Origin: Bacilli bacterium
GTDB lineage: Bacteria > Bacillota_I > Bacilli_A > RFN20 > CAG-826
NCBI GenBank assembly: GCA_041654095.1
Contig: JBAZED010000003.1
Location: forward strand, 4,089 to 68,088
Direction: 5' to 3'
DNA: 64,000 bases
Part shown: positions 11,901-57,666 of the stretch, in pieces
Numbering within the stretch: the stretch's first letter is position 1
How the letters are laid out: each line of letters starts with the position of its first letter
The notes under the pieces: generated by a model
What the model was told of the DNA's origin: nothing
The model's database searches: none
Seen by the model: only the letters and a program-made list of their open reading frames with translations
Position numbers and translations under genes: made by a program

Positions 11901-12477
11901 ATTCGGCATCATCGATTAATTCGATGTTTTGAATTTCGTGCGAAGTTCTGAAACCATCAAAAAAGTGCAAAACCGGGGCTTCGGCATCGATGGCGATCAA
12001 ATGGGCGAGAGGCGCGAGATCGGCGACTTCCTGAACGCTGTGAGAAGCCATGATGGTGATGCCGGTTTGACGAACGGCATAAATGTCTTGGTGATCGCCG
12101 AAGATCGATAGGGATCTGGTCGCGATGCTGCGCGCCGAAACGTGCAGGACGGCGGGGAGCAATTCGCCGCACCACTTATAAATATTAGGAATCATCAATA
12201 GCAAGCCTTGGCTAGCCGTATATGAGGAAGCGAAAGCTCCCCCTTGCAACGCGCCGTGAACGGCCGCGGCCGCTCCGCCTTCGGATTGCATTTCGACGAC
12301 TTTGCAGACATTGCCGAAAAAATTGATCTTGCCTTGCGAGGCATAGACGTCGACTAACTCGGCCATGGTCGAGCTGGGAGTAATCGGATAAATACCCGCG
12401 ACTTCGGTGAAATTATAACTGGCGAGCGCGGCGGCTGTATTGCCATCGACCGATAGGAAATGTTTTTTTATTGCCAT
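8935..12477 (-). CDS. nifJ: pyruvate:ferredoxin (flavodoxin) oxidoreductase, single-polypeptide type
   Basis: 1180 aa. Two ferredoxin-type clusters (CIQCNTCSFVCP, CVGCGVCVAEC), the TPP-binding GGDGWAYDIG motif, and an overall PFOR domain order. Confidence 0.95.
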   Translation of the reverse strand: MAIKKHFLSVDGNTAAALASYNFTEVAGIYPITPSSTMAELVDVYASQGKINFFGNVCKVVEMQSEGGAAAAVHGALQGGAFASSYTASQGLLLMIPNIYKWCGELLPAVLHVSARSIATRSLSIFGDHQDIYAVRQTGITIMASHSVQEVADLAPLAHLIAIDAEAPVLHFFDGFRTSHEIQNIELIDDAEWKKLLPLDKVEKFKARALNPHTHPVTRGGAENEDIYFQGREAQNAHYAKVLDYAEKYFAEASRLTGRHYAPFTYYGDENAEDVVVAMGSVTETTIEVIDELRKSGAKVGLVKVHLYRPFAAKHLASVLPHSVKRIAVLDRTKEMGAPGEPLYLDVVSALRQEGRDIAVFGGRYGLSSKDVPPRDIKAVYDMLKGHPFHDFTIGIVDDVTNRSLPVDEDFHVANDYTSCLFYGLGSDGTVSANKSSIKIIGDATGQYAQAYFQYDSRKAGGVTRSHLRFGKSPIHSTYFIGNADFISCSLDTYIVRYDMIKNLKKGGTFLLNTDMDDENLVKMMPNRVKHQLAKRNAHFFVIDANKIAREIGMGRHNNTILQASFFYLNQTIMPYEEAVKWMKKLVLKAYGKKGEDVVNKNYQAIDAGTQGLREVRVNPKWIELPYHRVSLKTGDDYFDNYVDIVGSLDGDTIPVSKFTEHELLDGTMDNNITFKEKRSIADMVPHWIKENCIQCNTCSFVCPHATIRPFLINEEELSKAPDIVKNDVRDAVGGPAVAGLKFRIQVSTKNCVGCGVCVAECLANKTGRIALEMVEAKGQFAQEEGADYLYKHTSYKSDKFPLTTVKGVGFLMPYMEVSGACAGCGETPYYRLASQLFGRDMLVANATGCTSIYCGSTPLTPFVKDDNGEGIAWANSLFEDNAEYGFGMRLATDYKLGLIAKIVSDALVSDKVEEELKEVGRNYLANIKNKAEARKIVHELLRLVKASKDDDIKRLLAHERDLVDKSIWIVGGDGWAYDIGYGGLDHVLANNNDVNVLVLDTEVYSNTGGQSSKSSQVGSIAKFTASGKAVAKKNLALLAMTYGHVYVAQIALGANAMKAIQALKEAESYEGPSLIIAYSPCVNHGIKGGMTNSIRTEKAAVECGYFTTFRYDPRREAQGLPALQLDCKEPDFSKFRDFVMNETRFSQLPNINPENAEALLNKSAEDAKKRWEKVKKFGL

Positions 12478-13216: not shown

Positions 13217-13648
13217 CTACTTCTTATCCAAATACTTTTCGCGAACTTCGGCGATCTTGATTCCCAGCCTCTTCAATTTGCCGAGATGGATAATCAAGAC
13301 GATGAGGCCATAGATGAGAATCGCCGACCCGGTGATTAGCAAGAAGAGGGACACCCAAAATTCAAAGGCCGTCGTCGACAAGGTCCGGAATTCATCTGCT
13401 ACATCAATTAGTTTAAAAGCTAAGATAAAAAATAGACCGCCTAAGATCAACGAAATCAGACCGAGGATGATAAAAACCATCGCCGTATCGTTTTTTTCGC
13501 GGGAGAAATTTTCATTCTTATGAAGCATTTGCACGAGTTTACGAGCATCGTCGTTCGTCAGTTCTTCACGCCCAAAAGCTTGTCCGCATTTCGGACAATT
13601 CGCCAAATCCTCTTTTGTCTCGTGACCGCAAAATCTACAATAATACAT
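13217..13648 (-). CDS. zinc-ribbon membrane protein (hypothetical)
   Basis: N-terminal CRFCGH...CPKCG zinc ribbon, followed by two long hydrophobic helices. Confidence 0.7.
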   Translation of the reverse strand: MYYCRFCGHETKEDLANCPKCGQAFGREELTNDDARKLVQMLHKNENFSREKNDTAMVFIILGLISLILGGLFFILAFKLIDVADEFRTLSTTAFEFWVSLFLLITGSAILIYGLIVLIIHLGKLKRLGIKIAEVREKYLDKK

Positions 13649-13668: not shown

Positions 13669-13697
13669 ATTATATGAAATATCTGCTATGTAGTCAA
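13669..13697 (-). promoter_or_regulatory. sigma70-type promoter of the zinc-ribbon gene / tRNA-Lys unit
   Basis: Minus strand TTGACT (13692-13697), 17-nt spacer, TATAAT (13669-13674). Confidence 0.6.
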
Positions 13698-13727: not shown

Positions 13728-13763
13728 CGAAAAAGAAAGGGCTTGAGAATAACTCTCAAACCC
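13728..13763 (-). terminator. strong rho-independent terminator closing the ABC/nuclease operon
   Basis: Minus strand GGGTTTGAGA-gttat-TCTCAAGCCC (10 bp including one G-U) followed by TTTCTTTTTCG. It lies about 20 nt after the Big_2 lipoprotein stop. Confidence 0.8.
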
Positions 13764-13784
13764 AATTTCTAAATTAGAATTCTC

Positions 13785-15062
13785 TTAGTCTACCACGAGA
13801 GTCGGACCAACGACTTGATATGTTTCGTTATATTTGCCGACAAATCCGGTTAGCGAAACGACATCGCTGACATTCAAGCCTTGGAATGTAGTGTAATCGG
13901 CAGCCGAAACATCGGCCTGCTTAACATAGACTTGATATTCTTTCGTACCAGTCGAAACTACGATGGTTATTCCGGAGTGGCCTTCTCCTTTATCATTGGA
14001 GGTAACCGTCCCAGAAAGGCTGACGAGACGATTTTGATCAGGGAAGGATATCGTCGCTGAATCATTAAGAACCTTGGCAACCGGCACTTCGATATCAGGA
14101 CTCGATGCAATTACTTCGATGGATTCGGGTTTGACTTCCATCAATCCATAAAAGACCGAGATGCTTCCGATGATTCGCAAGATGGTGCTCGTCGTAAACG
14201 TAGCGAGCAAATCAGCGTTGGAATAACCATATAACAAGACCGCGCTTTCACCATCGCCGACGAAGACGCCGTTATATGAATTGCCGCTATAAGCTCCTAA
14301 AAAGTAAGCATCAAAGGCCACACCGGCCTTATCAGACAAGCCTTTTCCGCCGTTAGACGAGTAAATCTCGGAGACGCGAATAATAGTTAATGTATTGACG
14401 CGAACGTTATAGTTCTTGGTTACGCCGGTGGCCGCGCTATTGTACAAGACGCTCGCGTTTAGTCGACACATCGCATAATCGTCATCGAATTCATTGCTGA
14501 AAGGTGGGGTGATAACGCATTCGTCACCATCGACACCGACTTCGATGTAGGTATTGAGATAACCCTTGGTGAGGGGATCATTGACTGCGGTATATACAAT
14601 TTGAAAAGTGTATCCAAGATAAACGACTTCGGTAATAAGATCAAAATTCGTCGTAACACCGGTGGTCGAAATGTTTGGATATAAGACGAGATTGATTGCT
14701 TCGGCCGCTGCTTCCAAGGCGGTGTATTCGGTGATTGAAACTTCGCATTTGGCCGTTTTTCCGCTGTCGTTTGAAGTGACGACAACATTGGTCGTGCCTT
14801 CCGCGACGGCGGTGACGATACCGGTCGCATCGACAGTCGCGATGGCGGCATTTTCGGTCGACCAAGTAACCTCTTTGTTGGGAGCGTCAGCGGGCGCAAA
14901 ACTGACATCGAGTTGTTCGGTTTCCGCCTCGGCGCCGATACTGAGTTCAACGGAATCCGGCATGATTTGCAAGCCGGTCACGTGAACCGTGTCATCGCCG
15001 CAGCCAGCCAATAGCGAAATGGACATGACCGCTAGAGATAAGATAGCACTAATTCTTTTCAT
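13785..15062 (-). CDS. surface lipoprotein with an N-terminal Big_2 Ig-like domain and OB-fold-like C-terminal modules
   Basis: Lipobox LLAGC. The Big_2 pattern reads VTGLQIMPDSVELSIGAEAETEQLDVSFAPADAPNKEVTWSTENAAIATVDATGIVTAVAEGTTNVVVTS. The C-terminal segments (GVFVGDGESAVLLYGY...IIGSISVFYGLMEV; VSLSGTV...VSLTGFVGKYNETYQV) look like nuclease-associated OB folds. Confidence 0.7.
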   Translation of the reverse strand: MKRISAILSLAVMSISLLAGCGDDTVHVTGLQIMPDSVELSIGAEAETEQLDVSFAPADAPNKEVTWSTENAAIATVDATGIVTAVAEGTTNVVVTSNDSGKTAKCEVSITEYTALEAAAEAINLVLYPNISTTGVTTNFDLITEVVYLGYTFQIVYTAVNDPLTKGYLNTYIEVGVDGDECVITPPFSNEFDDDYAMCRLNASVLYNSAATGVTKNYNVRVNTLTIIRVSEIYSSNGGKGLSDKAGVAFDAYFLGAYSGNSYNGVFVGDGESAVLLYGYSNADLLATFTTSTILRIIGSISVFYGLMEVKPESIEVIASSPDIEVPVAKVLNDSATISFPDQNRLVSLSGTVTSNDKGEGHSGITIVVSTGTKEYQVYVKQADVSAADYTTFQGLNVSDVVSLTGFVGKYNETYQVVGPTLVVD

Positions 15063-15075
15063 ACTTTTCTCCTTT

Positions 15076-16374
15076 TTATGAATTGAAAACTAAATCAGCG
15101 TTCTTGCACAAGCTCACTTGGTAAGAAACATTGCCCGATAGAGATTCGTATCTCAACAGTGCGCCGGTGACATTAAAAGTCTCACCTTCAACTTGAAAAT
15201 AGAGCGGATCGAGAATTCGGTCGAAACCCGAACCGGCGCGATCATAGACGTGGACATTGTCAGAAATGCGAAGATTAATCGCGCCCGACAAATTATCCAT
15301 ACAATTAATAGTCATAGCATTAGAATCGTCTTCTTTATAGCCGCCGGTTCCGTGAAGATTATTGACGGTGACGACGACATTAATATATTTGGGATCATTG
15401 CCTTGTGCGGCCGTAATCACCAATGGTTCGATGGCGTTTCCGGCCGTGATCAGCTTGATGTCATCCGGGCCGGGATAATACGGTGAATACTTCACGTCGA
15501 CCATTTGTAAATTGCCGTTAAAACTCGCGATGATACCGGTTAAACCGACTAAGTTGCCAATTGTTAAAAGCGGCGCGTAAGATTTGTACTGCGAGAAAAC
15601 ATAAAGACCGTAGCGCTGCGTGACGCCCGTCTCCTCGTCTTCGATATCGAGATTGATGTAGGCATCGGTGCCAATCGTCTTGGCGACAATACCTTCGAGA
15701 TACACTTTGGCGTCGATCCACGTCTCGGGATCTTCGACTACTTCTTTAATGCTGGTCACCGTGGCCGCTCCGTAATAGAAATCGGGATCGGGATCTTCGG
15801 ACCAGATGCGAATGGCTAAAGCTTGCGATTGCATATCAGCGTCATAAAAGACTTGGCTGAAGCGCGAATCGGAAATGCCCTTCGCACCCGAATAGCTCTC
15901 TTGAACGAGCCAGAGATTGATCATCTTGAAATCGCTGAGCGAGGGATTTTCGACAAAAGCGACCCAGATAAAAGATAGATAACGCGACCCGGTCGAATCG
16001 GCGACAGCAGGGCCAATCGCTTCGCTTTCGCTCGATAAGACGATTACCTTCGCCGCATTAAGCTTTTCGGCCGTGAATTTAGAAGCGGCTTTGCCCCACG
16101 GCTGAATTTGGCCGGTCGACTCTGGCGTATCGACACCGATAAAGCGGGCTTTGATACGATCTTCGGAGATGAGCGAAGTAAAGTGCGCCGTATCGCCGTC
16201 GACGGTGTTGAAAAGCGTCACTTCACCGATTCCGTCGGCAAGAAAATCGCGGCCTTCATATTCAGCTGTCAATTTCGTCTGTTCGACATAGTCGACAAAG
16301 GGCGCACCGTCGCAGCCACTGACGACGCCGGCGATGAGCGGTAATAAGAGAAAAAGTAAATTGCGTTTAATCAT
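15076..16374 (-). CDS. staphylococcal-nuclease (thermonuclease) family lipoprotein with OB-like C-terminal extension
   Basis: Lipobox VVSGC. The SNase core shows VDGDTAHF, ARFIGVDTPEST, WGKAASKFTAEKL, GSRYLSFIWV and NLWLVQESYSGA. It starts 3 nt after the SBP stop. Confidence 0.85.
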   Translation of the reverse strand: MIKRNLLFLLLPLIAGVVSGCDGAPFVDYVEQTKLTAEYEGRDFLADGIGEVTLFNTVDGDTAHFTSLISEDRIKARFIGVDTPESTGQIQPWGKAASKFTAEKLNAAKVIVLSSESEAIGPAVADSTGSRYLSFIWVAFVENPSLSDFKMINLWLVQESYSGAKGISDSRFSQVFYDADMQSQALAIRIWSEDPDPDFYYGAATVTSIKEVVEDPETWIDAKVYLEGIVAKTIGTDAYINLDIEDEETGVTQRYGLYVFSQYKSYAPLLTIGNLVGLTGIIASFNGNLQMVDVKYSPYYPGPDDIKLITAGNAIEPLVITAAQGNDPKYINVVVTVNNLHGTGGYKEDDSNAMTINCMDNLSGAINLRISDNVHVYDRAGSGFDRILDPLYFQVEGETFNVTGALLRYESLSGNVSYQVSLCKNADLVFNS

Positions 16375-16377
16375 GGT

Positions 16378-17706
16378 TTAAACCCCGCTGGCGAAGATGC
16401 ACTCAGTAATCGCGTCTTCGAATGCTTTATCGATGGTTTTAAGCTCCAATAAGACGCTGGCGATGATGCCGCCAACTACGTCACGAGCCTTCGAACTGCC
16501 GACAAAAACCGGCGAATAAAAGTAGGAATCGCGCATGTTAATCGTAACATTGGCGACTTTTGTGAAAAGGTTGGCATCGGCTCCTGTCGCATTTAAATGA
16601 GCTCGATATTCCGCAGTTTCATAAGAAGAGATACGAACCGGTTCATATCCGGTCAAAATCGAATAACGAGCCGAATTTTCGCTGTTGGATATAAATTTGT
16701 AAAATTCCCAAGCCGCCCTTTTTTCAGCCATTTTGGCTCTTTTGAAGAAAGTGATGGAAGGACCTTGCGAAATGACGGCCGGTTCTTCGGCGTCGATGGC
16801 GGGCGGAACGGCCACCCCGACTTCAAAGTTCGGTGAGAAATTATAACTAGTACCACCGGTAGAGCCGATGCTCATTAAAATGGTGCCATCAGTGAACTTG
16901 GTCGAAGTATAGCTGCTATTCGGCGAAACGCCTTTGGTGATGAAGAGACCTTCATCATAGAAAGCTTTTAGCTGTGTGACAAGGTCTTTGGCATCGGCGT
17001 TATCGAACAAGAAATGATTATTGCTATCTTGTGCGGTATATGGAATGCCCATCTGTTCACATAGGGTTATGAATAGATTGGAGTCGGAATCATAGCCCAG
17101 TGGAATCTTTGTTGGCGCAATCGCTTTAATGGTGCGGCAAAGAGCCAGCATTTCCGTCCAAGTGGTCGGGACTTCCAAACTATGAGCATTAAAGAAATCG
17201 ACATTATAAAACAGCGCTTCCGTCGACTTGCTGAAAGGCACGGAATACAAGCCATCGACTTGATATTCAAGACCTTCGCCCCAATATCCAGGAACAAAAT
17301 CATCGACGCCGGATTTGACAACTTCTCCTTCGAGATGCGAACCTTCGGCTTCGACAAAGCCAATTTCCTCATCGGTGAGATATGGAGTCATGTCTTCAAT
17401 CGCCCCGGATTTAATATAATTGGCGACGTGATCGGGATAGCAGAAGGCCATGGTCGGCGTCGTGCCGGCCGGGATGGCCGAAGAAATCTTATCGCGGATT
17501 TCCGGATAGCCGCCTTGAGAGGCGTGGGTGACGTTTATATCGGGGTGGAGGGCTGCGAACTCAGCAATCATATCGTCTAAAAGAGCTTTGTTGGATGCGC
17601 CCATCGTATGCCAAAAGACTACTTTGGTTCTCCCATCACCGTCACAGCCTGTCAAAAGGAGGACAAAAAGCGATGAAAAGGTTAAGATTTTTTTCGTGAT
17701 ATTCAT
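16378..17706 (-). CDS. ABC transporter substrate-binding lipoprotein, family 1 (CUT1-type), paralog B
   Basis: Lipobox LLLTGC. Shows VVFWHTMG...SQGGYPEIRDKISSAIPAGTTPTMAFCYPDHV. It is a paralog of the adjacent SBP. Confidence 0.85.
   Translation of the reverse strand: MNITKKILTFSSLFVLLLTGCDGDGRTKVVFWHTMGASNKALLDDMIAEFAALHPDINVTHASQGGYPEIRDKISSAIPAGTTPTMAFCYPDHVANYIKSGAIEDMTPYLTDEEIGFVEAEGSHLEGEVVKSGVDDFVPGYWGEGLEYQVDGLYSVPFSKSTEALFYNVDFFNAHSLEVPTTWTEMLALCRTIKAIAPTKIPLGYDSDSNLFITLCEQMGIPYTAQDSNNHFLFDNADAKDLVTQLKAFYDEGLFITKGVSPNSSYTSTKFTDGTILMSIGSTGGTSYNFSPNFEVGVAVPPAIDAEEPAVISQGPSITFFKRAKMAEKRAAWEFYKFISNSENSARYSILTGYEPVRISSYETAEYRAHLNATGADANLFTKVANVTINMRDSYFYSPVFVGSSKARDVVGGIIASVLLELKTIDKAFEDAITECIFASGV
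17480..17517. repeat. 38-nt run identical to 18827-18864 (SBP paralogs)
   Basis: gaagaaatcttatcgcggatttccggatagccgccttg is identical character for character in both SBP genes. The flanking bases differ. Confidence 0.9.
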
Positions 17707-17727
17707 TGAGTATTCAAACCCCCCATA

Positions 17728-19098
17728 TCAAGTGGCGAAGACGCAAGCGGTAATCGCATCGTCGAAAGCTTCATCAATCGTCTTCAGACCAAGCAAAACG
17801 TTGGCGAGAATGCCGTCGACTTCATCACGAGCGGTCGATGAGCCTTTAAAGGCGGGCGAAACATAGTACCAATCTTCGATGAAAGGAACAAAATCAGCAA
17901 CTGCTTTAATCAATTCTGAATCAGTACCCGGAGTCACAGAGCGTCCGGTCGTGTATTCGGAAGTGAGGAATGAAGAGCTGCGAACGGGGTTATAACCCGT
18001 CAAAACGGAATAAATGGCGGAGTTTCTGGTGTTGGTAATCCACTTATAAAATAACCAAGCCGCGATTTTTTGATTGGCAGTCGCTCTTTTGAAAATGGTG
18101 ATCGACGGTCCTTGTGAAATGACTTTTTGCGACGTTGCTTGAGTATCGGGATTTTTATACTGCGGAACGGGGGCGACACCAACTTCAAAGTTCGGAGAGA
18201 AATCATATCTCGTCCCGCCGGTGGAGCCGACCGTCATGTATAATTTACCTTCTGTAAATTGAGTAGAAGTATAAGCGTTATTAGGCGAAGATCCTTGGGT
18301 GGTAATCAGGCCTTCATCAAACCAATTCTTGAGATCTTGGACCACGGCCCGAGCTTCGGGGTTGTCGAAGAGGAAATGGTTATCCGGATCGATTGAGGTA
18401 TAAGGAATGTTCATCTGCTCGCAAAGGGTGATGAACCAGTTGGCATCTGAGTCATATCCAAAGGGAATTGAAGCAGGATCAATCACCTTGATTTGACGGG
18501 CCACGGTAATCATTTCTTCCCAAGTCGTCGGAACAGTAAGGCTGTTGGTCGTAAAAAAGTCTTTGTTATAGAATAAAACTTCGGTCGATTTGCTGAAAGG
18601 TACGGAATATACGCCTTCCTTGACGTATTCTTGCCCTTCTTGCCAATAGGCCGGAATGAAATCATCGACGCCTCCGGCCAAGGTCAAATCGCCTTCGACG
18701 CCTAAGCCGAGAACCTCATCTCCAATGTATGTGGTTAGGTCTTGCACGGCGCCGGCGTTCATATAGTCAGCGACGTGATCGGGATAGCAATAGGCCATCG
18801 TCGGCGTCGTACCGGCTGGAATGGCTGAAGAAATCTTATCGCGGATTTCCGGATAGCCGCCTTGCGAGGCGTGTTCGATGGTAATCTTCGGGAAGATAGT
18901 GTTGAACTCGGCGATCATCGAATCGAGAACTGCGCGGTTGGCAGCCCCCATCGTATGCCAGAAAGTAATGCTAGTTTTCAGCTGCGTCGGATCGCCATTG
19001 TACTCTTCTTCGGTTCCACCGTCGCAGCCGACGAGAGCCATCGTTGCAAATAGAGCAGCAACAACTAATGATGGGAATCTGCTTCGAATTTTTTTCAT
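17728..19098 (-). CDS. ABC transporter substrate-binding lipoprotein, family 1 (CUT1-type), paralog A
   Basis: Lipobox MALVGC. The start is set at the ATG at 19096-19098 (MKKIRSRF), preceded by AAAGGAG. Confidence 0.85.
   Translation of the reverse strand: MKKIRSRFPSLVVAALFATMALVGCDGGTEEEYNGDPTQLKTSITFWHTMGAANRAVLDSMIAEFNTIFPKITIEHASQGGYPEIRDKISSAIPAGTTPTMAYCYPDHVADYMNAGAVQDLTTYIGDEVLGLGVEGDLTLAGGVDDFIPAYWQEGQEYVKEGVYSVPFSKSTEVLFYNKDFFTTNSLTVPTTWEEMITVARQIKVIDPASIPFGYDSDANWFITLCEQMNIPYTSIDPDNHFLFDNPEARAVVQDLKNWFDEGLITTQGSSPNNAYTSTQFTEGKLYMTVGSTGGTRYDFSPNFEVGVAPVPQYKNPDTQATSQKVISQGPSITIFKRATANQKIAAWLFYKWITNTRNSAIYSVLTGYNPVRSSSFLTSEYTTGRSVTPGTDSELIKAVADFVPFIEDWYYVSPAFKGSSTARDEVDGILANVLLGLKTIDEAFDDAITACVFAT
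18827..18864. repeat. 38-nt run identical to 17480-17517
   Basis: Partner of the repeat above. It encodes the shared QGGYPEIRDKISS segment. Confidence 0.9.
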
Positions 19099-19146
19099 AG
19101 ATACTCCTTTATGTTTAAGCATTGATGCTTATTGTAACCAATTGAA

Positions 19147-20148
19147 TTAGCCTTTGATGCCGGCTCGCCCGACACCTTTCATAATATATTTTCGAAAGAA
19201 AATAAACAAGAGGAGGAGCGGGACGGTGACGAGCACGGTCGCGGCCATCTGCAAATCGTATTGAGGTTCACCGGTCGTCGTCGAGAACGATGAGCGAAGG
19301 CCGTTGGTGATCAAGCGATACTCCTGTTTGTCAGCGACGAGATTGGGCCAGACATATGAGTTCCAGGCCCCCATCAATTTTAAGATGAAGATGGAGATGA
19401 GCGTCGGCATGCTGAGCGGAACCATGACGTTCCACAAGTAATTCCAGTCGGTCTTGCCATCGACTTTGCTAGCCAAATACAGCTCATTTGGAATCTGCAG
19501 GAAGTTTTGCCGCAGCAAGTAGATGTAAAAGACGCTGACCCAGAACGGGACGATCATGGCCGTAAAAACGCCGGCTTGGTCGCTGAGCCATCCGAAGTTT
19601 GAGACGGTGATGTAATTGGTAATGACCATCATTTCACCAGGGATCATCATCGTCGCCAACAATAGAGCAAAGAAGAAATTCTTGCCTTTGAATTGCAACC
19701 TGGCAAAAGCAAAGGCGGCGAAGATCGTCGTGATGAGAGTACCTAATGTCGAGATGACTCCGACGATTAAGGTATTCGTCAAATAAGTCGCAAAATCAAA
19801 GCGGGCAAAAACATCGATGTAATTTGACCACATGACAACTTCGGGCCAAAAAGTTTGCGTTGAAGAGCGAATTTCGGTATTGGACTTAAGAGAGGTGATA
19901 ACCATCCAATAAAAGGGGATGATGACGATGACGGCCATGACGATTAAGAACGCATAAATCAAAACCATCGAGATGACTTTCATGACTTTCTGCAGCGTCT
20001 CTAGTTGGGTGGCGGAGAGACCGCCTTCCTTAATGACTAAAGTCATCGACCTAGTGTCGATATTTCGATATTCCGGTCTCTGACGACGCGCTTCTTCTCT
20101 TTCAGAGCGCGATTTCACATGGAGTAGTTTGCGAATGTCTAGTTTCAT
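19147..20148 (-). CDS. ABC transporter permease (MalG/UgpE-like) with ~55-aa cytoplasmic N-terminal extension
   Basis: Multi-TM protein with the EAA-like loop ASKVDGKTDWNYLWNVMVP. The start is set at the ATG at 20146-20148 with a GGAGGA RBS 8 nt upstream, just after the upstream permease stop. Confidence 0.85.
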   Translation of the reverse strand: MKLDIRKLLHVKSRSEREEARRQRPEYRNIDTRSMTLVIKEGGLSATQLETLQKVMKVISMVLIYAFLIVMAVIVIIPFYWMVITSLKSNTEIRSSTQTFWPEVVMWSNYIDVFARFDFATYLTNTLIVGVISTLGTLITTIFAAFAFARLQFKGKNFFFALLLATMMIPGEMMVITNYITVSNFGWLSDQAGVFTAMIVPFWVSVFYIYLLRQNFLQIPNELYLASKVDGKTDWNYLWNVMVPLSMPTLISIFILKLMGAWNSYVWPNLVADKQEYRLITNGLRSSFSTTTGEPQYDLQMAATVLVTVPLLLLFIFFRKYIMKGVGRAGIKG

Positions 20149-20162
20149 TTGCGAGATCCTCC

Positions 20163-21083
20163 TTAATAATGAACGCGCTTCTTTGAAATCCAAAACTGAA
20201 TTCCGGTGAAGGCGAGAATGACGATGAAGAGAAGAACAGCTGCGGCGGCGCCGAGGTGGACGTTGCCATCATCAATTTTGTCGTAAATATAGAAGACGAC
20301 GGTGTACATATTGTTGTTTCCGGTCGCGGTTCCGCTCTTGCCGAGAAGACCCATGACCGATGAGTATTCCTTAAAGGCTCCGATGAACGATGTGATCATG
20401 ATGTAGAGAATCTGCGGAGATAAGAGCGGGACGGTGATGTTAGTAAAAGTTTTGAAGCGACCCGCTGAGTCGACTTTCGCAGCATCATAATACTGCTTGT
20501 CAATATTCTGCAGTCCGGAGAGGAAAATCAAAATCTTATAAGGCAGCGAATGCCAAATGATATAGACGCAGAGGGCAAACATCGCTTTTGACGGATCGGC
20601 GCCCACATCGAGCCAATAGTTCGGCATCGCTAAGCCGAATAAATAGTTCCAAAGACCGAAACCATCAAAGATGACGGCGAACACCATGCCGACGGCGATG
20701 GCATTGGTCACATAGGGGAGGAAGAAAATCGTTTGGAAAATCTTCTTGACCCACTTAATCGAATTGAGGGCGACGGCGATCAGAAGTGAAATTGTAATCG
20801 ATAAGGGGACGGTGACAAAGACGATGATCAAGGTGTTGGGGACCGCTATTTGAATGACATCGTAGTAGAAACGTTCTTGACCTCCGTACACTTTCGGCAC
20901 GAGGCCTAATACATAACCGAAGTTATCGAACGTGAAGCCATCGCTGGTGCCAGTCAAATAATTATAGTTTTTAAGGAAAGCGATGCCGATGGTGTTAATT
21001 AACGGGTAGAAGATAAAGATGCCCGTCAATATGACGACCGGGGCGAGGTAGAGCCAGGCTTTCCAGTTGTTCTTCTTTTCCAA
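20163..21083 (-). CDS. ABC transporter permease (MalF/UgpA-like)
   Basis: Six predicted TM segments and the EAA loop AAKVDSAGRFKTFTNITVPLL. It starts 2 nt after the ATPase stop. Confidence 0.85.
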   Translation of the reverse strand: MEKKNNWKAWLYLAPVVILTGIFIFYPLINTIGIAFLKNYNYLTGTSDGFTFDNFGYVLGLVPKVYGGQERFYYDVIQIAVPNTLIIVFVTVPLSITISLLIAVALNSIKWVKKIFQTIFFLPYVTNAIAVGMVFAVIFDGFGLWNYLFGLAMPNYWLDVGADPSKAMFALCVYIIWHSLPYKILIFLSGLQNIDKQYYDAAKVDSAGRFKTFTNITVPLLSPQILYIMITSFIGAFKEYSSVMGLLGKSGTATGNNNMYTVVFYIYDKIDDGNVHLGAAAAVLLFIVILAFTGIQFWISKKRVHY

Positions 21084-21085
21084 GG

Positions 21086-22654
21086 TTAGATAATCCTTTC
21101 CTCAGTTTTCTTATCGAAGACCAAGCACTTGACCGGCTTGACGGAGAAACGGACCTCACCGACGTTGACTTTGACGAGAGCATCGATGATGATTTTGGTA
21201 TCATTTAAGGCATTGACGTCATCGATGTTGAGAATGACATCGCGGCCCATCGTATTAATCGATTTGACATCGAGCGACAGCGCGCCTTTGTCATCGACGA
21301 TGAAGCCTTCGGGACGAATGCCGACGATAACTTCTTGATCGCCAATTTTTTTCTCGTCTATGTCGCGGACAAAATCACCGCCGATATAGACCTTCCCGCC
21401 TTTGATCTCGCCTTTGAAGAGGTTGATCGGCGGCGTGCCGAGGAAGTTGGCCACGAATTTATTGACGGGATTGTTATAGACTTCTTGCGGGGCGGCTCTC
21501 TGCTGCTCGACGCCGAGTTTCATGACGATGATCTCATCGGAGATGGACATGGCTTCTTCTTGGTCGTGCGTGACGAAAATCGTCGTGATGCCAGTATCTT
21601 TTTGCAAGCGGCGAATCTCTTCACGCGTCTGTAAGCGAAGGCGAGCATCGAGGTTGGAAAGTGGTTCATCGAGAAGCAAAACTTTTGGTTTCTTGACAAG
21701 AGCACGGGCGATAGCGACGCGCTGTTGTTGACCGCCGCTCAATTGATTGGGCTTGCGCTCAAGGAGATTTTCAATCTGGACGAGCGCCGCGGTTTCGTGA
21801 ACCAATTTATCAATTTCGTCCTTGGTCAGACGGCGCTTATAAGAGAAAGGTTTGCCGTCTTCGCCGAGAATGGCTTCACCAGCCCGGTGTTTGACGTCGA
21901 AGAGATATCTTTCCGGAACATTGACTTTAATTTGAGCTGGGCGAAAGATCTTTGTCTTTTGAACGCCATCGGCTCCGAGCACCGGTTCGTTTTTGGCGTG
22001 GAGAACGGTTTTGCCGTCCGCGTCAAACTCATCTTGCGTATAGACGAGCGGGAATTCAAACGCCAAACTGGCAAGCGCTCCATCCGATCCGGACACCGCT
22101 TTGGCGACGGGATATTGCTCTTTGACGATCACCACCGCTTTGGCGCCGGAGATGGGCACAAATTCTTTGGCGGTTTCATCGAAGTCTTGAACTTCGCTTA
22201 ACGGGATGCGGTGCAGCACGGCATTGCCGGCATCATCCTTAACTAATTCACCGCGTAGGTGAGTTGGTTGTTCGCTAGGTCGGCACGGCACGTGCTTCGT
22301 GTAGCGCTTGTGATCGGCGATGCGAATATTCGTGAGCGGGAAAGCCACGTTTTTATAGACCGACATGTGCGGGTAGAGGGCGTAATTTTGAAAAACGAGA
22401 CCGATGCCGCGCTTATCAGGAGCGAGGCGGGTCACGTCTTCATCGCCAAACCATATTTCGCCGGCTGTCGGCTCTTGGAGACCGGAAATCATATATAGAG
22501 TCGTCGATTTTCCGCATCCCGATGGTCCGAGCAATCCGATGAGCTTACCGTCAGGAATGACCACGTTAAAATCATTAACGGCCACCGTGTCGTCGATATT
22601 CTTCTTCGGATTCCCAGGAAAAACTTTCGTTAAATTCTTAAGGCGTATTTCCAT
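21086..22654 (-). CDS. CUT1-family ABC ATPase (MalK/UgpC/MsmK-like) with a ~165-aa insertion in the helical subdomain
   Basis: Walker [11 protein letters not shown]-loop [11 protein letters not shown], signature [15 protein letters not shown], Walker B LLLDEP, and a C-terminal TOBE-like domain. About 165 extra residues (roughly 110-275) sit between the Q-loop region and the signature. Confidence 0.9.
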
Positions 22655-22685
22655 ACTGATAATCTCTCCTATGGGTTATTTCCAT

Positions 22686-22700
22686 TGTGATTATATCACA
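22686..22700 (-). promoter_or_regulatory. extended -10 promoter embedded in a perfect palindrome (candidate operator) upstream of the ABC operon
   Basis: Minus strand TGTGATATAATCACA. It contains TGaTATAAT (-10 hexamer at 22690-22695) and 6-bp arms TGTGAT/ATCACA. It lies about 30 nt upstream of the GGAGAG RBS and ATG at 22654. Confidence 0.55.
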
Positions 22701-22782
22701 GAGACACGCTAAAATAAACAATATATTCTAACCCTTACATTCTGTAACGGGGCCTATTTTTCGTTCGTTAATAATGATTGGT

Positions 22783-23751
22783 CTACAAATTGAAAGAGGC
22801 GTTGGTGTGGCGGTCTTCGTAGTCTTCAAGACTCGTATAAACCATATTTGTCTCGATATCGACGGAGTAAATGCCGAGCATATAATCAGCGAAAGTCTGG
22901 TTGTTTTTTGAAAAGAAAAACATCGATACGGTGAAGAGGACGGGAATGCCCAAGGTAAAGAGGGAAGCGATCACTTCGACGAAAAGAAAAATCGCGAATT
23001 TAGCGAGGTAGCGGCCGGCCCGCGGCGAAAGCGCGTGGTTGGTGACGAGGCCGATATGGAAAATCCTCCGACCGAGCGTCTGCTTACCTCGAGAAAAAAT
23101 CAGGGGGATGACCAGTTCAAAGACAATTAAACTCAAGATGACGGAAACAGGTAAAATGAAGAAATTTGAAAATAGTAGGATAATGCGCGAAGCTTCATAA
23201 TAGTCGGGATTGGCGTTCAGATAACTATAAGCTACATCTTCGATGGCGATGATGTAGAATTTATTCATTTTTTCAGCGTCGTACTCGGGATTAGGAACGA
23301 TCGTTTGCATCTCCGATCCGCTGTAGACAAAGTAATCGCCAGGAATGGCCGTCTCGCCAATTTTTTGGCTATTGTAAAGAGCGAGGCCGCTCGCTGGATC
23401 GCCCTGATCGAAAAAGAGGGGATTCGCATAGAAAGCGACGAGGGCCGCTTCGCATTCGCCATTGACCTCGAGGTAGTCGGTATTTTCCGCATAGTAGTCG
23501 GTGATTAAATCGAATTCATTGTCGCTGTTTTTGACGTAGAGCCGGGATGCTCCCTGAAGCTCTTCTCGCGTTTCGAGAGATTCGACATATATCGGTTGGC
23601 GCTCAGCGATACCCCGTGTTCCAAGCAAAAGTAAAGAAGAGAGGACGCCGATGCAAAGCAAATCGAAAAGAAAAGCCAAAATTCGCTTCGAATATTTAAC
23701 CTTGGGATAGTTCACTTCGATGACATTGGTGTCGGCCGGAGTTTCGGGCAT
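22783..23751 (-). CDS. RDD-family membrane protein with a large extracytoplasmic loop
   Basis: The N-terminal KRILAFLFDLLCIGVL helix is followed by a ~150-aa hydrophilic loop and a C-terminal TM bundle (GRRIFHIGLV...ADYMLGIYSV). The start abuts the stop of the upstream paralog. Confidence 0.65.
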   Translation of the reverse strand: MPETPADTNVIEVNYPKVKYSKRILAFLFDLLCIGVLSSLLLLGTRGIAERQPIYVESLETREELQGASRLYVKNSDNEFDLITDYYAENTDYLEVNGECEAALVAFYANPLFFDQGDPASGLALYNSQKIGETAIPGDYFVYSGSEMQTIVPNPEYDAEKMNKFYIIAIEDVAYSYLNANPDYYEASRIILLFSNFFILPVSVILSLIVFELVIPLIFSRGKQTLGRRIFHIGLVTNHALSPRAGRYLAKFAIFLFVEVIASLFTLGIPVLFTVSMFFFSKNNQTFADYMLGIYSVDIETNMVYTSLEDYEDRHTNASFNL

Positions 23752-24882
23752 CTATTTACTCTCCAACTTGCTTCGCGCCGATTTATAGACGGCGGCATCG
23801 ACGACGACAGTGCGGACGGCGAGGTCGTGGATGGCTTGGGATTTTCGCGAGACGAACAAGGCGATGAGGGAGGCCACGCTGAGGATGATCGAGCCGAAAG
23901 CGACGGAATAAAAAGGAATGGAAAAAGCTCCGACGACGATGAGCGGCAACAAGAATGATTCTGTTCCCCAAGTCAAGAAGGGAACAAAGTTTAGGGCGAT
24001 GGAAAACGTCACCATCTCGAGGAGGCCGCGAACGATAATCTGACCATAGGTCAACTTGGATTTTGACACTGGTTGCAGGGACATTCCCAAGACTCGTTTT
24101 GATACCGTTCGCCCATCTTTTTTTATCAGAGGGACGACGATATAAAAGAGGATGGCGACGACGAGATAAGTGAGCCCTGAACCGAGGGAGGACCGACCCA
24201 TCAAATCTTTCATCATGACGACGAAGATGTCATATTCGGCAACCGTGGCCGGCAAATTGGCATATACCTCGCGAGCATCAGCTAAAGCCTCGAGATAAAA
24301 AGTTTGAAAGGATTCATAGGCTGCGACCGCCGCTTCGCCGCGATCGCTGTTTTGATATGCGACCAGCAAGGTTTTAAATTGAGGCTGGAGCAACGCCGGT
24401 TTATCGACATCATCGTCGTAGCACCAGATCGGGCTCGTGTTTTCGTCGTCAATCGCCGCTGGTAGGCCGAGCACTTCCACATTGAAAACGGAGGCGGAAC
24501 GCTCAAGATACTGAACGTAGAAAAACATCAAGTGGTCATCGCCAGCATAAATCTCAGCATCGGCGGATAATTTCGCGGCAAAATAGGCCTCGAACATCTT
24601 TTCTTGGCTGAGCTCCGCTTCGCTTTCGTCGAGGGCGTAGAGATGCGTTTCGAGCGCCTTCGCATTCATCACTCCAATCTGGGCGCGGGCCACCGCCGAA
24701 GAATCGCCGAAACCGACGATCGGCATCGCCGCGACGGCCGATAGAGCCATGCCGACGAGAGCGACGATTGCCATATCGAGCAAAGCTCCGAGCATGCGCT
24801 TCCCTTTCGAGACGAGCATGTAAGGAGGGGCTTCATCGGTGATCTGATGATTATTTACGCCAATCGTTTCGTTTTCTGCCAT
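23752..24882 (-). CDS. RDD-family membrane protein with a large extracytoplasmic loop (paralogous architecture)
   Basis: KRMLGALLDMAIVALVG helix, a ~170-aa loop, then a TM bundle (SKRVLGMSLQP...). The ATG at 24880-24882 (MAENE) is preferred. The track's TTG at 24906 would overlap the putative tuf terminator. Confidence 0.65.
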   Translation of the reverse strand: MAENETIGVNNHQITDEAPPYMLVSKGKRMLGALLDMAIVALVGMALSAVAAMPIVGFGDSSAVARAQIGVMNAKALETHLYALDESEAELSQEKMFEAYFAAKLSADAEIYAGDDHLMFFYVQYLERSASVFNVEVLGLPAAIDDENTSPIWCYDDDVDKPALLQPQFKTLLVAYQNSDRGEAAVAAYESFQTFYLEALADAREVYANLPATVAEYDIFVVMMKDLMGRSSLGSGLTYLVVAILFYIVVPLIKKDGRTVSKRVLGMSLQPVSKSKLTYGQIIVRGLLEMVTFSIALNFVPFLTWGTESFLLPLIVVGAFSIPFYSVAFGSIILSVASLIALFVSRKSQAIHDLAVRTVVVDAAVYKSARSKLESK

Positions 24883-24902
24883 TGTTAATTCCCATGCGAC
24901 TT

Positions 24903-24927
24903 TCAATAAAAAACAGTATGCGCTGTT
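24903..24927 (-). terminator. weak terminator candidate after tuf
   Basis: Minus strand AACAG-cgcata-CTGTT followed by TTTTATTG. The stem is only 5 bp. Confidence 0.3.
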
Positions 24928-32442: not shown

Positions 32443-32620
32443 GGTTGGCTCCTTGATAGGACTATCACTATATAAATTATACCGCACCGCTACTTATTTA
32501 CGCGACTAACGGCTCGAAGACAAGCGGAGTCGATATAAATGCGCCTACTCAAAAAGAAAGGCGATTTTCATTATAAAATAATGCTGTCGCCCATTCAATT
32601 TTATTGCTGTGAGATGCTTT

Positions 32621-34195: not shown

Positions 34196-34273
34196 AAGTT
34201 GCTCCCATCGGTGAATTATTACACTATATTTGATTATATTCAAATAACACAAATAGATGAAATAAGTGCTGTA

Positions 34274-53887: not shown

Positions 53888-53901
53888 GAATAATTCTCCT
53901 T

Positions 53902-57665: not shown

Positions 57666-57666
57666 T

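Follow-up and report, generated by a model that had tools for sequence, protein, structure and literature searches.

In mycoplasmas, genes encoding a surface lipoprotein (P80, P81, or MslA), an SNase-family nuclease, and an ABC transporter have been explicitly named a putative nucleotide transporter operon, and a bind-cut-import model has been published for them. The SNase lipoproteins of such operons include MAG_5040, mhp379, MPN133, MG186, and MBOVPG45_0310. In Mycoplasma agalactiae, MAG_5030 (P80) has been modelled as a solute-binding protein (SBP) and shares a transcript with the nuclease and ABC genes, while the mycoplasma surface lipoprotein MslA has been shown to bind single- and double-stranded DNA. 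Nuclease and ABC genes also come together in the "DNA-degradation loci" of Ca. Izemoplasmatales (Wasmund et al. 2021; Xianfuyuplasma coldseepsis zrk13, Zheng et al. 2021), an isolate of which has been shown to grow on DNA.

Here, we analyze a 64,000-nucleotide stretch of DNA from a Bacilli bacterium (hereafter, the window), which carries a seven-gene operon of this general kind. This operon shares with those of mycoplasmas the placement of an SNase-family surface lipoprotein gene beside genes for a sugar-type ABC importer and an SBP-like surface lipoprotein, as well as an unusually large ATPase (2103 bp for the gene in M. bovis). The mycoplasma components, which are compared by description only, are nevertheless ordered lipoprotein-SNase-ATPase-permeases, whereas the order here is ATPase-permeases-SBP-SBP-SNase-OB lipoprotein. 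In place of the one mycoplasma lipoprotein of 70-80 kDa, there are two compact canonical family-1 SBPs of ~450 aa each, a nuclease with two predicted OB modules, and a separate Big_2+OB lipoprotein. The Izemoplasmatales loci likewise belong to wall-less or reduced Bacilli relatives, and in them genes for ABC transporters and a nucleic-acid-binding protein are grouped with those for extracellular nucleases, a thermonuclease among them. They are, however, more extensive and less tightly organized, and besides multiple nucleases they include phosphohydrolases, a phosphate transporter, and a 1,049-aa nuclease/lamin-tail protein, in contrast to the compact and fixed seven-gene operon described here (the ABC components again compared by description only).

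The first-pass annotation of this DNA had cited the nuclease/ABC adjacency of mycoplasmas, and the published operons bear this out. It had also stated that the mycoplasma transporter lacks an SBP, which is contradicted by MAG_5030, and that no such system had been described. This claim to novelty was overstated, given the published mycoplasma operon and Izemoplasmatales loci. The idea of nucleic-acid scavenging has already been proposed for mycoplasmas, and the present operon is a fuller, widespread form.

Results

The seven genes are probably expressed as a single transcript. All seven open reading frames (ORFs) lie on the minus strand, separated by gaps of 2-48 nt, in the 5' to 3' order ATPase, permease 1, permease 2, SBPa, SBPb, SNase lipoprotein, and Big_2+OB lipoprotein (Table 1). 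The earlier description of seven packed genes between one promoter and one strong terminator thus holds, with the ORFs recovered at the same coordinates and both the -10 element and the hairpin located. Consensus scans for promoters and terminators were, taken as a whole, at chance level, and the operon promoter was missed because its -35 element is weak. Alignment with a related locus (L001) shows that the -10 and T-rich blocks are kept while the remaining spacer has diverged, and sequence and conservation together point to a probable promoter. The hairpin at 13763..13739 is the strongest terminator candidate of the region, and the gene that follows it has its own promoter match (11/12 at 13697..13669). 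The terminator scan found none above chance between the seven genes. It also found none between the upstream RDD genes and the operon, so transcription may read through from the RDD genes. As read from the sequence, all four exported proteins carry an L/V-x-G-C lipobox. Also encoded in the window, and consistent with the scavenging role discussed below, are Lgt and a dihydropyrimidine dehydrogenase pair of PreA/PreT type.

Table 1. Features of the operon, by position in the window.
Feature	Position	Strand	Details and evidence
Probable promoter	22690..22720	-	Extended -10 TGaTATAAT at 22698..22690; T-rich block before -10; weak -35
RBS	22664..22670	-	AGGAGAG, 9 nt 5' of ATPase ATG
MalK/UgpC-type ABC ATPase	21086..22654	-	522 aa; Pfam ABC_tran 5e-34, split in two; C-terminal OB_MalK regulatory domain
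ATPase insertion	21836..22330	-	165 aa (residues 109-273); helical subdomain between MalK positions 101 and 103
Permease 1 (UgpA/MalF-like)	20163..21083	-	306 aa; BPD_transp_1; TTG start
Permease 2 (UgpE/MalG/GlcU-like)	19147..20148	-	333 aa; BPD_transp_1; likely start ATG 20148
SBPa, family-1 solute-binding lipoprotein	17728..19098	-	456 aa; lipobox LVGC; Pfam SBP_bac_8 4e-38
SBPb, paralogous family-1 solute-binding lipoprotein	16378..17706	-	442 aa; lipobox LTGC
SNase-OB-OB surface lipoprotein	15076..16374	-	432 aa; lipobox VSGC; Pfam SNase PF00565, E 2e-7
SNase catalytic domain	15772..16236	-	Residues 47-201; D59-G-D61-T62, R77, D82-T83, E85, R131
Two OB-topology beta-barrel modules (predicted)	15082..15708	-	Residues 223-292 and 334-431; DSSP of AlphaFold model
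Big_2+OB surface lipoprotein	13785..15062	-	425 aa; lipobox LAGC; Pfam
Big_2 domain	14739-14981	-	Residues 28-108; Pfam E 6.6e-18; PDB Big_2-type matches
OB domain	13803-14024	-	Residues 347-420; Pfam tRNA_anti-codon, 29.9 bits vs cut-off 27
Intrinsic terminator-like hairpin	13739..13763	-	11-pair stem, then T-run; TTTCTTTTTC

The transporter genes encode a CUT1-type importer with an enlarged ATPase. The best NCBIfam matches of all four component types are Ugp proteins (UgpC/A/E/B), each under its cut-off (337 bits for the ATPase against UgpC), and PDB matches of the ATPase are to MalK-like ATPases (7e-86, in two blocks). No Pfam match was found within its 165-aa insertion, which had been put forward as a marker of such systems. 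An insertion does occupy the same site in 63 of 69 aligned related ATPases; its length ranges from 17 to 277 aa, most commonly a short 26-aa form, and length is therefore no hallmark. For permease 2, the longest ORF begins at TTG 20193, and the 333-aa L001 orthologue matches the ATG 20148 start.

The SNase lipoprotein has an intact catalytic core, as originally noted. Its motifs DGDT, RFIGVDTPE, and GSRYLSFIWV align to SNase residues D21, R35, D40, T41, E43, and R87, and the catalytic residues are invariant across 16 homologues, save D82 and T83. Staphylococcus aureus nuclease (SNase/Nuc, EC 3.1.31.1) shares the fold (TM 0.85-0.90 against solved structures) and all Ca2+-binding and catalytic residues. 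The operon protein differs from it in sequence (identity ~24%), in carrying a lipid anchor, an N-terminal linker, and two added OB-topology modules, and in the placement of its gene inside a transporter operon. The intact active site predicts nuclease activity. The two putative OB modules show a beta1-3/alpha/beta4-5 topology in the AlphaFold model (pLDDT 87), and residues 224-292 have a sub-threshold Pfam tRNA_anti-codon match (E 0.003). The nuclease family comprises 464 clusters at E<=1e-30, with relatives encoded in 494 species genomes.

The last gene of the operon encodes a surface lipoprotein of a recurrent family. Several OB-like modules had been claimed for this protein; only one is demonstrated (Table 1). 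The protein shares one family with 70 of the 75 genes collected directly downstream of SNase in relatives, among which OB and Ig domains recur. Judged by their fold, the OB domains of both lipoproteins may bind nucleic acids.

SBPa and SBPb appear to be binders of nucleotides or dinucleotides, not of sugars or glycerol-3-phosphate (G3P). The two proteins are 58-62% identical, and an SBPb-like protein is the sole SBP in 21 of 26 single-SBP relatives. The longest ORF of SBPa starts at 19122, and the database lists the protein at 456 aa. Among solved proteins, both SBPs are nearest to the dinucleotide (U3'-5'pG)-binding SBP of Thermus thermophilus (Chandravanshi et al., FEBS J 2021, PMID 33599038; PDB 7C0F and mutants), with sequence matches to the 7C0x entries at 1e-28 and 1e-25, compared with 4e-13 to 1e-13 for UgpB. 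Structure prediction agrees: the top 25 fold matches of the SBPa model (pLDDT 87) are all the Thermus protein (TM 0.80-0.85), and UgpB is the second-best protein (E 3e-23). Identity to the Thermus SBP is 21-28% (structure-based alignments <=22%, MAFFT 26-28%). Seven of the eight residues mutated in its PDB entries are kept in both SBPs, at family-invariant positions (Thermus=operon SBP: Y56=Y82, F79=Y105, S127=S171, Y224=Y276, T240=S292, Y246=Y298, and Q274=Q329), whereas N81 is Asp. At the positions of Thermus Y224, Y246, and Q274, E. coli UgpB has E, N, and G; its E66 and its W169/W172 loop are absent from SBPa and SBPb. Sequence, fold, and residues therefore favor the dinucleotide-binding protein over UgpB, in line with the first reading of the SBPs as not of sugar type. 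Unlike the Thermus SBP, both carry a lipid anchor and an extra loop of ~20-30 residues (around residues 125-160). The Thermus gene neighbors two permeases and an aldehyde:ferredoxin oxidoreductase in a locus without a nuclease, and its physiological substrate is unsettled because the ligand was co-purified ("endogenously bound"). SBPa and SBPb also weakly match the NCBIfam "P68 family surface lipoprotein" (4e-8 and 1.6e-5).

The nuclease-transporter adjacency on which the original proposal was built is conserved in related genomes. Among 82 non-redundant loci, 69 had enough upstream DNA for gene order, and in all 69 the SNase gene follows ATPase, permease, permease, and one to three SBPs (one copy in 22 loci, two in 46, and three in 1); one further locus, with a frameshifted permease, shows this order too. 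This core order persists down to 31-35% nuclease identity, despite rearranged flanks. A lipoprotein gene lies directly 3' of SNase in ~70 of the 82 loci, and a second SNase lipoprotein has been added in 31. The operon thus behaves as a single, conserved functional unit centered on a surface nuclease.

Discussion

We consider it highly probable that the module serves to harvest nucleic acids, and likely that the operon constitutes a dedicated extracellular nucleic-acid scavenging system in a lipoprotein-rich, small-genome Bacilli bacterium. The nuclease's two OB modules, together with the Big_2+OB lipoprotein, would retain DNA or RNA at the cell surface. The Ca2+-type SNase domain would then cleave this nucleic acid, yielding the products established for micrococcal-type nucleases: mono-, di-, and short oligonucleotides with a 3'-phosphate. 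Because of their similarity to the Thermus dinucleotide-binding protein, the paralogous SBPs are proposed to capture phosphodiester or nucleotide products, most likely dinucleotides or short oligonucleotides, and SBPa and SBPb may differ in preference. Independent support for linking such SBPs to a nuclease comes from two distant Bipolaricaulota-type MAGs, in which a relative of the dinucleotide-binding protein is encoded in one locus with an SNase fusion protein. The MalK-like ATPase and its pair of CUT1-type permeases would import the captured products, leaving the final breakdown, whether for salvage or for catabolism, to cytoplasmic enzymes encoded elsewhere. Weighing against this scheme, the operon itself encodes no phosphatase, nanoRNase, or kinase. 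The substrate is deduced from these comparisons, and the chance that nucleotides or di-/oligonucleotides, not nucleosides, are imported is in our view about even.

The importer might instead carry nucleosides or bases, with extracellular nucleotidases, encoded at other loci, removing phosphate from the SNase products and the SBPs binding the nucleoside moiety. Wasmund et al. read the SBPs of nuclease-linked Izemoplasmatales ABC transporters in this way, as probable nucleoside or nucleobase transporters. One relative locus (L002) encodes, a few genes further downstream, a Y_phosphatase3 and a protein with a faint 5'-nucleotidase-C match, and the two Bipolaricaulota-type MAGs have an SNase+metallophosphatase fusion in a locus with thymidine kinase (thymidine kinase, permease, dinucleotide-binding-protein relative, permease, fusion). 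We nevertheless regard nucleoside import as unlikely: no phosphatase was found within the seven-gene operon, known nucleoside ABC SBPs are of the PnrA/BmpA type rather than family-1, and the closest solved SBP relative holds a phosphodiester-linked dinucleotide. Established mollicute nucleoside uptake uses that different, PnrA-type SBP, a point that also weighs against the scavenging reading.

It is quite improbable that the operon encodes a Ugp-like importer of glycerophosphodiesters or G3P, or another sugar-type CUT1 importer, with the nuclease and OB lipoproteins in a parallel role such as phosphate scavenging. The sub-cut-off NCBIfam matches and the second rank of UgpB in the fold search speak for such an importer, and relatives are annotated "multiple sugar" or UgpB in their source databases. 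The Thermus SBP reportedly binds glycerophosphocholine as well. E. coli UgpBAEC (the sn-glycerol-3-phosphate/glycerophosphodiester importer) does share the CUT1 architecture. However, its UgpB ligand residues are replaced in SBPa and SBPb, while the equivalents of the dinucleotide-specific Y224/Y246/Q274 are invariant. The operon further differs in its ATPase insertion and in its strict linkage to SNase and OB proteins, and a UgpQ-type phosphodiesterase or glycosidase is absent from it and from the 82 related loci.

Inherited synteny may account for some of the conserved adjacency, given that unconnected flanking genes (two RDD proteins, a 143-aa membrane protein, and PFOR) are also syntenic in many loci, and mycoplasma SNase homologues have also been studied as cytotoxins and NET-degrading factors; yet that the adjacency is mostly clade-inherited gene order, with a nuclease for defence, biofilm/eDNA remodelling, or competition independent of the transporter, is very hard to credit when the core stays intact where flanks are rearranged, inverted, or lost, when the SNase/ABC pairing recurs in other gene orders in mycoplasmas and the Bipolaricaulota-type MAGs, and when the genes are so tightly packed with no internal terminator above chance. 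Nucleic-acid scavenging remains our preferred reading, and the operon most likely harvests nucleic-acid fragments as food.

Operon anatomy and genomic setting

We show that the seven genes form one head-to-tail series on the minus strand, as the first-pass annotation had observed. Two starts were slightly corrected against orthologues (permease 2 and SBPa, the first of two paralogous family-1 solute-binding lipoproteins), and the gaps between genes measure 2-48 nt. All four exported proteins carry what is expected of bacterial lipoproteins, namely a signal peptide with a lipobox cysteine (LVGC, LTGC, VSGC, and LAGC), and an Lgt gene is present in the window.

Positions in the window of the operon, its signals, and other features discussed in the text
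Feature	Position	Strand	Domains or remarks
ABC ATPase	22654..21086	-	Pfam ABC_tran split in two; C-terminal OB_MalK
Insertion site in ATPase	21836-22330	-	165 aa; no Pfam match
Permease 1	21083..20163	-	Pfam BPD_transp_1
Permease 2	20148..19147	-	Pfam BPD_transp_1; corrected start
SBPa	19098..17728	-	Pfam SBP_bac_1/8; corrected start
SBPb	17706..16378	-	Pfam SBP_bac_1/8
SNase lipoprotein	16374..15076	-	Pfam PF00565
Big_2+OB lipoprotein	15062..13785	-	Big_2 and OB domain, Pfam, above threshold
Whole operon	22654 to 13785	-	Seven ORFs
Extended -10	22698..22690		TGaTATAAT
Terminator-like hairpin	13763..13739		11 pairs and T-run
Two RDD-family genes	22783-24906	-	322 and 384 aa
143-aa protein	13217-13648	-	Zinc-ribbon-like motif; two TM helices
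Promoter match of the 143-aa protein gene	13697..13669		Strong
Lgt	4454-5743
PFOR	8935-12477	-	Pyruvate:ferredoxin oxidoreductase
FeFe hydrogenase	52109-55773	-	With NuoF-like subunit
PreA/PreT-like pair	56412-57731 and 57667-58896	-	DHO_dh+4Fe-4S and Fer4_20+Pyr_redox_2
ORF 1	29468-30973	-	No Pfam match
ORF 2	30982-32487	-	No Pfam match; lipobox-like N-terminus
ORF 3	32621-34252	-	No Pfam match; lipobox-like N-terminus

An extended -10 element with a good ribosome-binding site precedes the ATPase gene, and this -10 block is kept in one relative despite an otherwise diverged spacer. The consensus promoter and terminator scan performed overall at chance level, and from it we use only the terminator-like hairpin 3' of the last gene, together with the conserved -10. 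The gene beyond the hairpin has its own near-consensus promoter. No terminator was found between the two upstream RDD genes and the operon, so that read-through into the operon is possible. Only two tRNAs were detected in the window, with no riboswitch or other known RNA element upstream of the operon or elsewhere. The two adjacent RDD-family membrane protein genes lie directly upstream on the same strand. They are found with the operon in the majority of related loci, including some in which the pair is inverted (L039, L051, and L061), and could be co-transcribed or functionally linked with it.

The window is core genome, with genes for rpoB/C, EF-G, EF-Tu, UvrA, CysRS, and RpoA. Thus, the operon does not lie on an island. 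Three ORFs of 501-543 aa are located between rpsG/fusA/tuf and rpoC, and the products of ORFs 2 and 3 share the motif YIHETGHLLGLDDYYNY (HExxH), which suggests that these two are paralogous lipoproteins acting as zinc metalloproteases at the cell surface. The FeFe hydrogenase and PFOR indicate an anaerobic H2-producing fermenter, and many relatives keep PFOR in synteny with the operon. The PreA/PreT-like pair is of the dihydropyrimidine dehydrogenase type, circumstantially suggesting reductive pyrimidine metabolism in the host of the candidate nucleic-acid scavenging operon.

Conservation across related genomes

Full-length relatives of the nuclease make up a family of at least 689 proteins at 90% clustering, from a search over up to 8000 candidates. 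At 50% identity, 464 clusters match its profile (E<=1e-30), and a relative is encoded in 494 of the species genomes scanned. We annotated the best 80 loci and four more obtained by exact look-up, giving 82 that are non-redundant. All 69 loci with enough upstream DNA, plus one with a frameshifted permease, show the order ATPase-permease-permease-SBP-SNase, down to 31-35% nuclease identity. The adjacency noted in the first-pass annotation is conserved among these relatives.

Two SBP genes are present in 46 of these loci, one in 22, and three in a single locus. An SBPa-like gene is followed by an SBPb-like gene in 37 two-SBP loci, which argues that the SBP duplication is old; single-SBP loci mostly carry the SBPb type.

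A lipoprotein gene directly follows the nuclease in approximately 70 of the 82 loci. Among 75 downstream ORFs collected, 70 form one homologous family of variable length (281-1140 aa) in which OB and Ig-like domains recur, the seventh gene of the window being a short member. A second lipoprotein of ~390 aa, with an SNase domain in its C-terminal half, occurs in 31 loci (L007, L009, L011-L014, and L039-L045 among others) and is absent from the window. A profile comparison with residues 47-201 of the window SNase gives E 3.6e-29 for this domain, and the gene is placed between those of the OB/Ig lipoprotein and the small membrane protein. In the window, the latter has 143 aa and bears a CxxC...CxxC motif at its N-terminus. 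In relatives, it always goes with either the OB lipoprotein or a second SNase lipoprotein, also where such a pair is found relocated to the upstream side of the ATPase (L008, L026, L030, and L032).

The hosts are metagenome-assembled genomes (MAGs) labeled Bacilli, "uncultured Mollicutes", Anaeroplasmataceae, Coprobacillus sp. CAG:826, Ca. Caccosoma, and Ca. Onthovivens, which we take to be reduced-genome Bacilli of the RF39/RFN20/Acholeplasmatales type. Among uncultured small-genome Bacilli that live in association with hosts, the operon appears near-universal across a large group.

Surface nuclease and OB-domain lipoprotein

The SNase lipoprotein retains an intact active site. Its PF00565 match scores 31.7 bits (cut-off 21), and the motifs quoted in the first-pass annotation are present and align with SNase D21, R35, D40/T41, E43, and R87. 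The Ca2+ ligands D21, D40, and T41 correspond to D61, D82, and T83, and the catalytic R35, E43, and R87 to R77, E85, and R131. Across 16 homologues D61, R77, E85, and R131 are invariant, while D82 is replaced by N in three and T83 by A in one. An AlphaFold model (pLDDT 87) matches solved SNase structures (Foldseek E 2e-9, TM 0.85-0.90). From these residues, the domain is predicted to be a Ca2+-dependent endo/exonuclease yielding 3'-phosphates.

The model also contains two further beta-barrels whose predicted beta1-3/helix/beta4-5 order is that of an OB fold. A sub-threshold OB profile match at residues 224-292 (17.9 bits) fits this modeled topology; a fold search with the whole model returned SNase matches only, none of them classifying the C-terminal modules. 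In the Big_2 protein, residues 347-420 form a PF01336 OB domain, which scores 29.9 bits and so exceeds the cut-off of 27. We detected no pairwise similarity between the C-terminal modules of the nuclease and the C-terminal part of the Big_2 protein, and shared ancestry of the two was rejected on this ground.

ATPase and permeases

The transporter has all components of a CUT1-type binding-protein-dependent importer: an ATPase, two permeases, and cluster-D/family-1 SBPs. The ATPase is of the MalK/UgpC type with a C-terminal regulatory OB_MalK domain, and a PDB MalK-like match (7e-86) spans both of its halves. The permeases are of the MalF/UgpA and MalG/UgpE types. The insertion that splits the ATPase (residues 109-273) falls exactly between MalK positions 101 and 103. 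We rejected it as a diagnostic signature: the site is a hotspot that holds 17-277 extra aa, most commonly in a short form. Inserts of ~270 aa occur there in several lineages (L002, L068, L069, L072, and L079-L081). In the closest named relative (L005, UBA1424) two ORFs, of 317 and 234 aa, take the place of a single ATPase gene, and in L069 permease 2 is split; both breaks are frameshifts or MAG assembly errors.

Solute-binding proteins are related to a dinucleotide-binding protein

SBPa and SBPb, which are 58-62% identical, both match SBP_bac_1 and SBP_bac_8. Their closest solved relatives are the Thermus thermophilus dinucleotide-binding SBP (PDB 7C0F) and its mutants, at E 1e-28 and 1e-25; the glycerol 3-phosphate (G3P)-binding UgpB of E. 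coli follows at 4e-13 to 1e-13. The SBPa model (pLDDT 87, pTM 0.85) folds into two lobes as SBPs do and matches 7C0F, UgpB, and MalE. Its top 25 fold matches are all 7C0x entries (TM 0.80-0.85), followed by UgpB and then by maltose-type SBPs. Both proteins are compact, canonical, and probably soluble.

Eight residues of the Thermus protein have been mutated, as taken from PDB entry titles, and the 7C0x chain numbering is offset by +2 consistently for all eight. Alignments that include E. coli UgpB place these residues as tabulated below. Seven of the eight are kept or conservatively replaced in the window SBPs, the exception being N81, which is D. At all eight positions, the residue of the window SBPs varies little or not at all among 28 family members.

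Residues aligned with mutated positions of the Thermus dinucleotide-binding protein
7C0F	Window SBPs	UgpB
Y56	Y82	Y
F79	Y105	Y
N81	D107	V
S127	S171	S
Y224	Y276	E
T240	S292	S
Y246	Y298	N
Q274	Q329	G

The discriminating positions are Y224, Y246, and Q274, which the dinucleotide-binding protein and the window SBPs have in common to the exclusion of UgpB; the Y246 match rests on the MAFFT alignment and is shifted by one residue in the HMMER pairwise alignment. By similarity to 7C0F, SBPa and SBPb are candidate dinucleotide-binding proteins.

Gene neighborhoods in the clade of the Thermus protein offer mixed support for a nucleic-acid role. At the Thermus locus, the neighbors of the SBP gene encode two permeases and an aldehyde:ferredoxin oxidoreductase and include no nuclease, and we rejected this locus as confirmation of such a role. 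One relative (51% identity) is an orphan with a NUDIX gene as its neighbor. In another lineage, an SBP-ATPase-permease-permease set is closed by a protein with weak to faint matches to metallo-beta-lactamase-fold families (Lactamase_B_2/B_3). Two Bipolaricaulota-type MAGs, whose SBPs are 34-36% identical, encode thymidine kinase, permease, SBP, permease, and an SNase+metallophosphatase fusion of 633-636 aa. Association of this SBP subfamily with SNase is thus seen again in a distant phylum and is not universal.

In these two MAG loci the fusion genes (L088 6220-8130 and L089 10234-12135) join SNase to a PhoD_N/purple-acid-phosphatase/metallophosphatase module. Flanking them are genes for CUT1 permeases, for thymidine kinase, and for the SBP akin to the dinucleotide-binding protein, an arrangement resembling a compact nucleic-acid salvage cluster in its own right.

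Proposed function and alternatives

We tentatively propose, with somewhat less than even confidence, that SBPa and SBPb, the Thermus 7C0F protein, and the SNase-linked Bipolaricaulota-type SBPs constitute an unrecognized family-1 subfamily for dinucleotides or short 3'-phospho-oligonucleotides. For the operon itself, we consider nucleic-acid scavenging the most likely function. Surface OB domains, in the Big_2+OB lipoprotein and in the two modules tethered to the nuclease, would hold nucleic acid, and the SNase domain would cut it into 3'-phospho mono-, di-, and oligonucleotides, the established products of EC 3.1.31.1. SBPa and SBPb would then capture these products, which the CUT1 transporter would import.

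Alternatively, the transporter could import nucleosides after external dephosphorylation, as Wasmund et al. interpreted similar loci. We consider this unlikely here; in mycoplasmas, nucleoside uptake is assigned to a different, PnrA-type system. A Ugp-like importer of glycerophosphodiesters, to which the UgpB similarity of both SBPs could point, seems more doubtful again. The G3P-contacting residues of UgpB include E66 and the W169/W172 loop (4AQ4; 6X84 is the W169S/W172S variant). In the window SBPs, E66 is replaced by an invariant Pro, and the UgpB loop GWQGW reads DANWF (DASTF in the Thermus protein). That the genes share only inherited synteny, with the nuclease acting independently, is very improbable, as the core order is kept where flanks are rearranged, inverted, or lost.

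Comparison with known systems

Coupling of a nuclease to an ABC importer has been described before. The M. agalactiae genes MAG_5030 (P80), MAG_5040 (SNase), and MAG_5050-5070 (ABC components) are transcribed together; P80 was modeled as an SBP, and the nuclease was proposed to feed the transporter (PMC3585158). The first-pass statement that the mycoplasma operon lacks an SBP is therefore wrong. The M. bovis genes MBOVPG45_0307-0311 were named a putative nucleotide transporter operon, and their ATPase gene of 2103 bp is thus also oversized (PMC4045577). According to the same report, M. gallisepticum MslA, a P81 homologue, binds ss and dsDNA, with a proposed hand-over of substrate to the nuclease (PMC4045577). 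A bind-cut-import type of model is repeated in reviews. Furthermore, the published "DNA-degradation loci" of Izemoplasmatales comprise genes for nucleases and ABC transporters as well as one for a nucleic-acid-binding nuclease protein, and a cultured member grows on DNA.

The mycoplasma operon and the window have in common an SNase-family lipoprotein gene contiguous with genes for a sugar-type ABC ATPase and two permeases. The mycoplasma order is lipoprotein-SNase-ATPase-permease-permease, whereas the window and all 69 informative relatives have the order type ATPase-P1-P2-SBP-SBP-SNase-OB lipoprotein. Upstream of the nuclease, mycoplasmas have a large P80/P81/MslA-type lipoprotein; the window has two canonical SBPs in this place. 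Against the NCBIfam model NF045826 ('P68 family surface lipoprotein'), the window SBPs give weak partial matches (4e-8 and 1.6e-5) that fall far under the cut-off of 200.

The functional reading in the first-pass annotation is supported by conservation and by the likeness of the SBPs to 7C0F; its claim to a system not described as an entity fails, the central idea being already published. What is new is a fixed arrangement of genes (ATPase-permeases-SBP(s)-SNase-OB lipoprotein), the canonical SBPs related to a dinucleotide-binding protein, the SNase-OB-OB architecture, the OB/Ig lipoprotein family, and the breadth of this system outside Mycoplasma.

Significance

These findings bear on the question of how phosphorylated nucleic-acid fragments enter bacteria that are unable to make nucleotides. 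For nearly twenty years, the nuclease-linked ABC transporter of mycoplasmas has carried the label of nucleotide importer with no substrate demonstrated, a point on which the first-pass annotation was right. The operon described here offers an easier route to a substrate: a solved relative holds a dinucleotide, and most of its mutation-probed residues are kept. The practical value lies in a compact, widespread nuclease-coupled importer whose SBP ligand is now predictable and testable.

If the proposed SBP subfamily is real, this would be the first ABC oligonucleotide importer with a clear physiological setting, in which nucleic acid passes from an OB protein that captures it at the surface to an OB-tethered SNase and on to a CUT1 transporter. 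About 500 species of reduced-genome Bacilli would possess it. The subfamily would further provide the missing substrate assignment for the long-enigmatic mycoplasma transporters of the MG187-189 / MPN134-136 type. Should the operon work as proposed, it would matter for the nutrition of the Bacilli that carry it and for how nucleic acid of dietary, host, and microbial origin is turned over in the gut.
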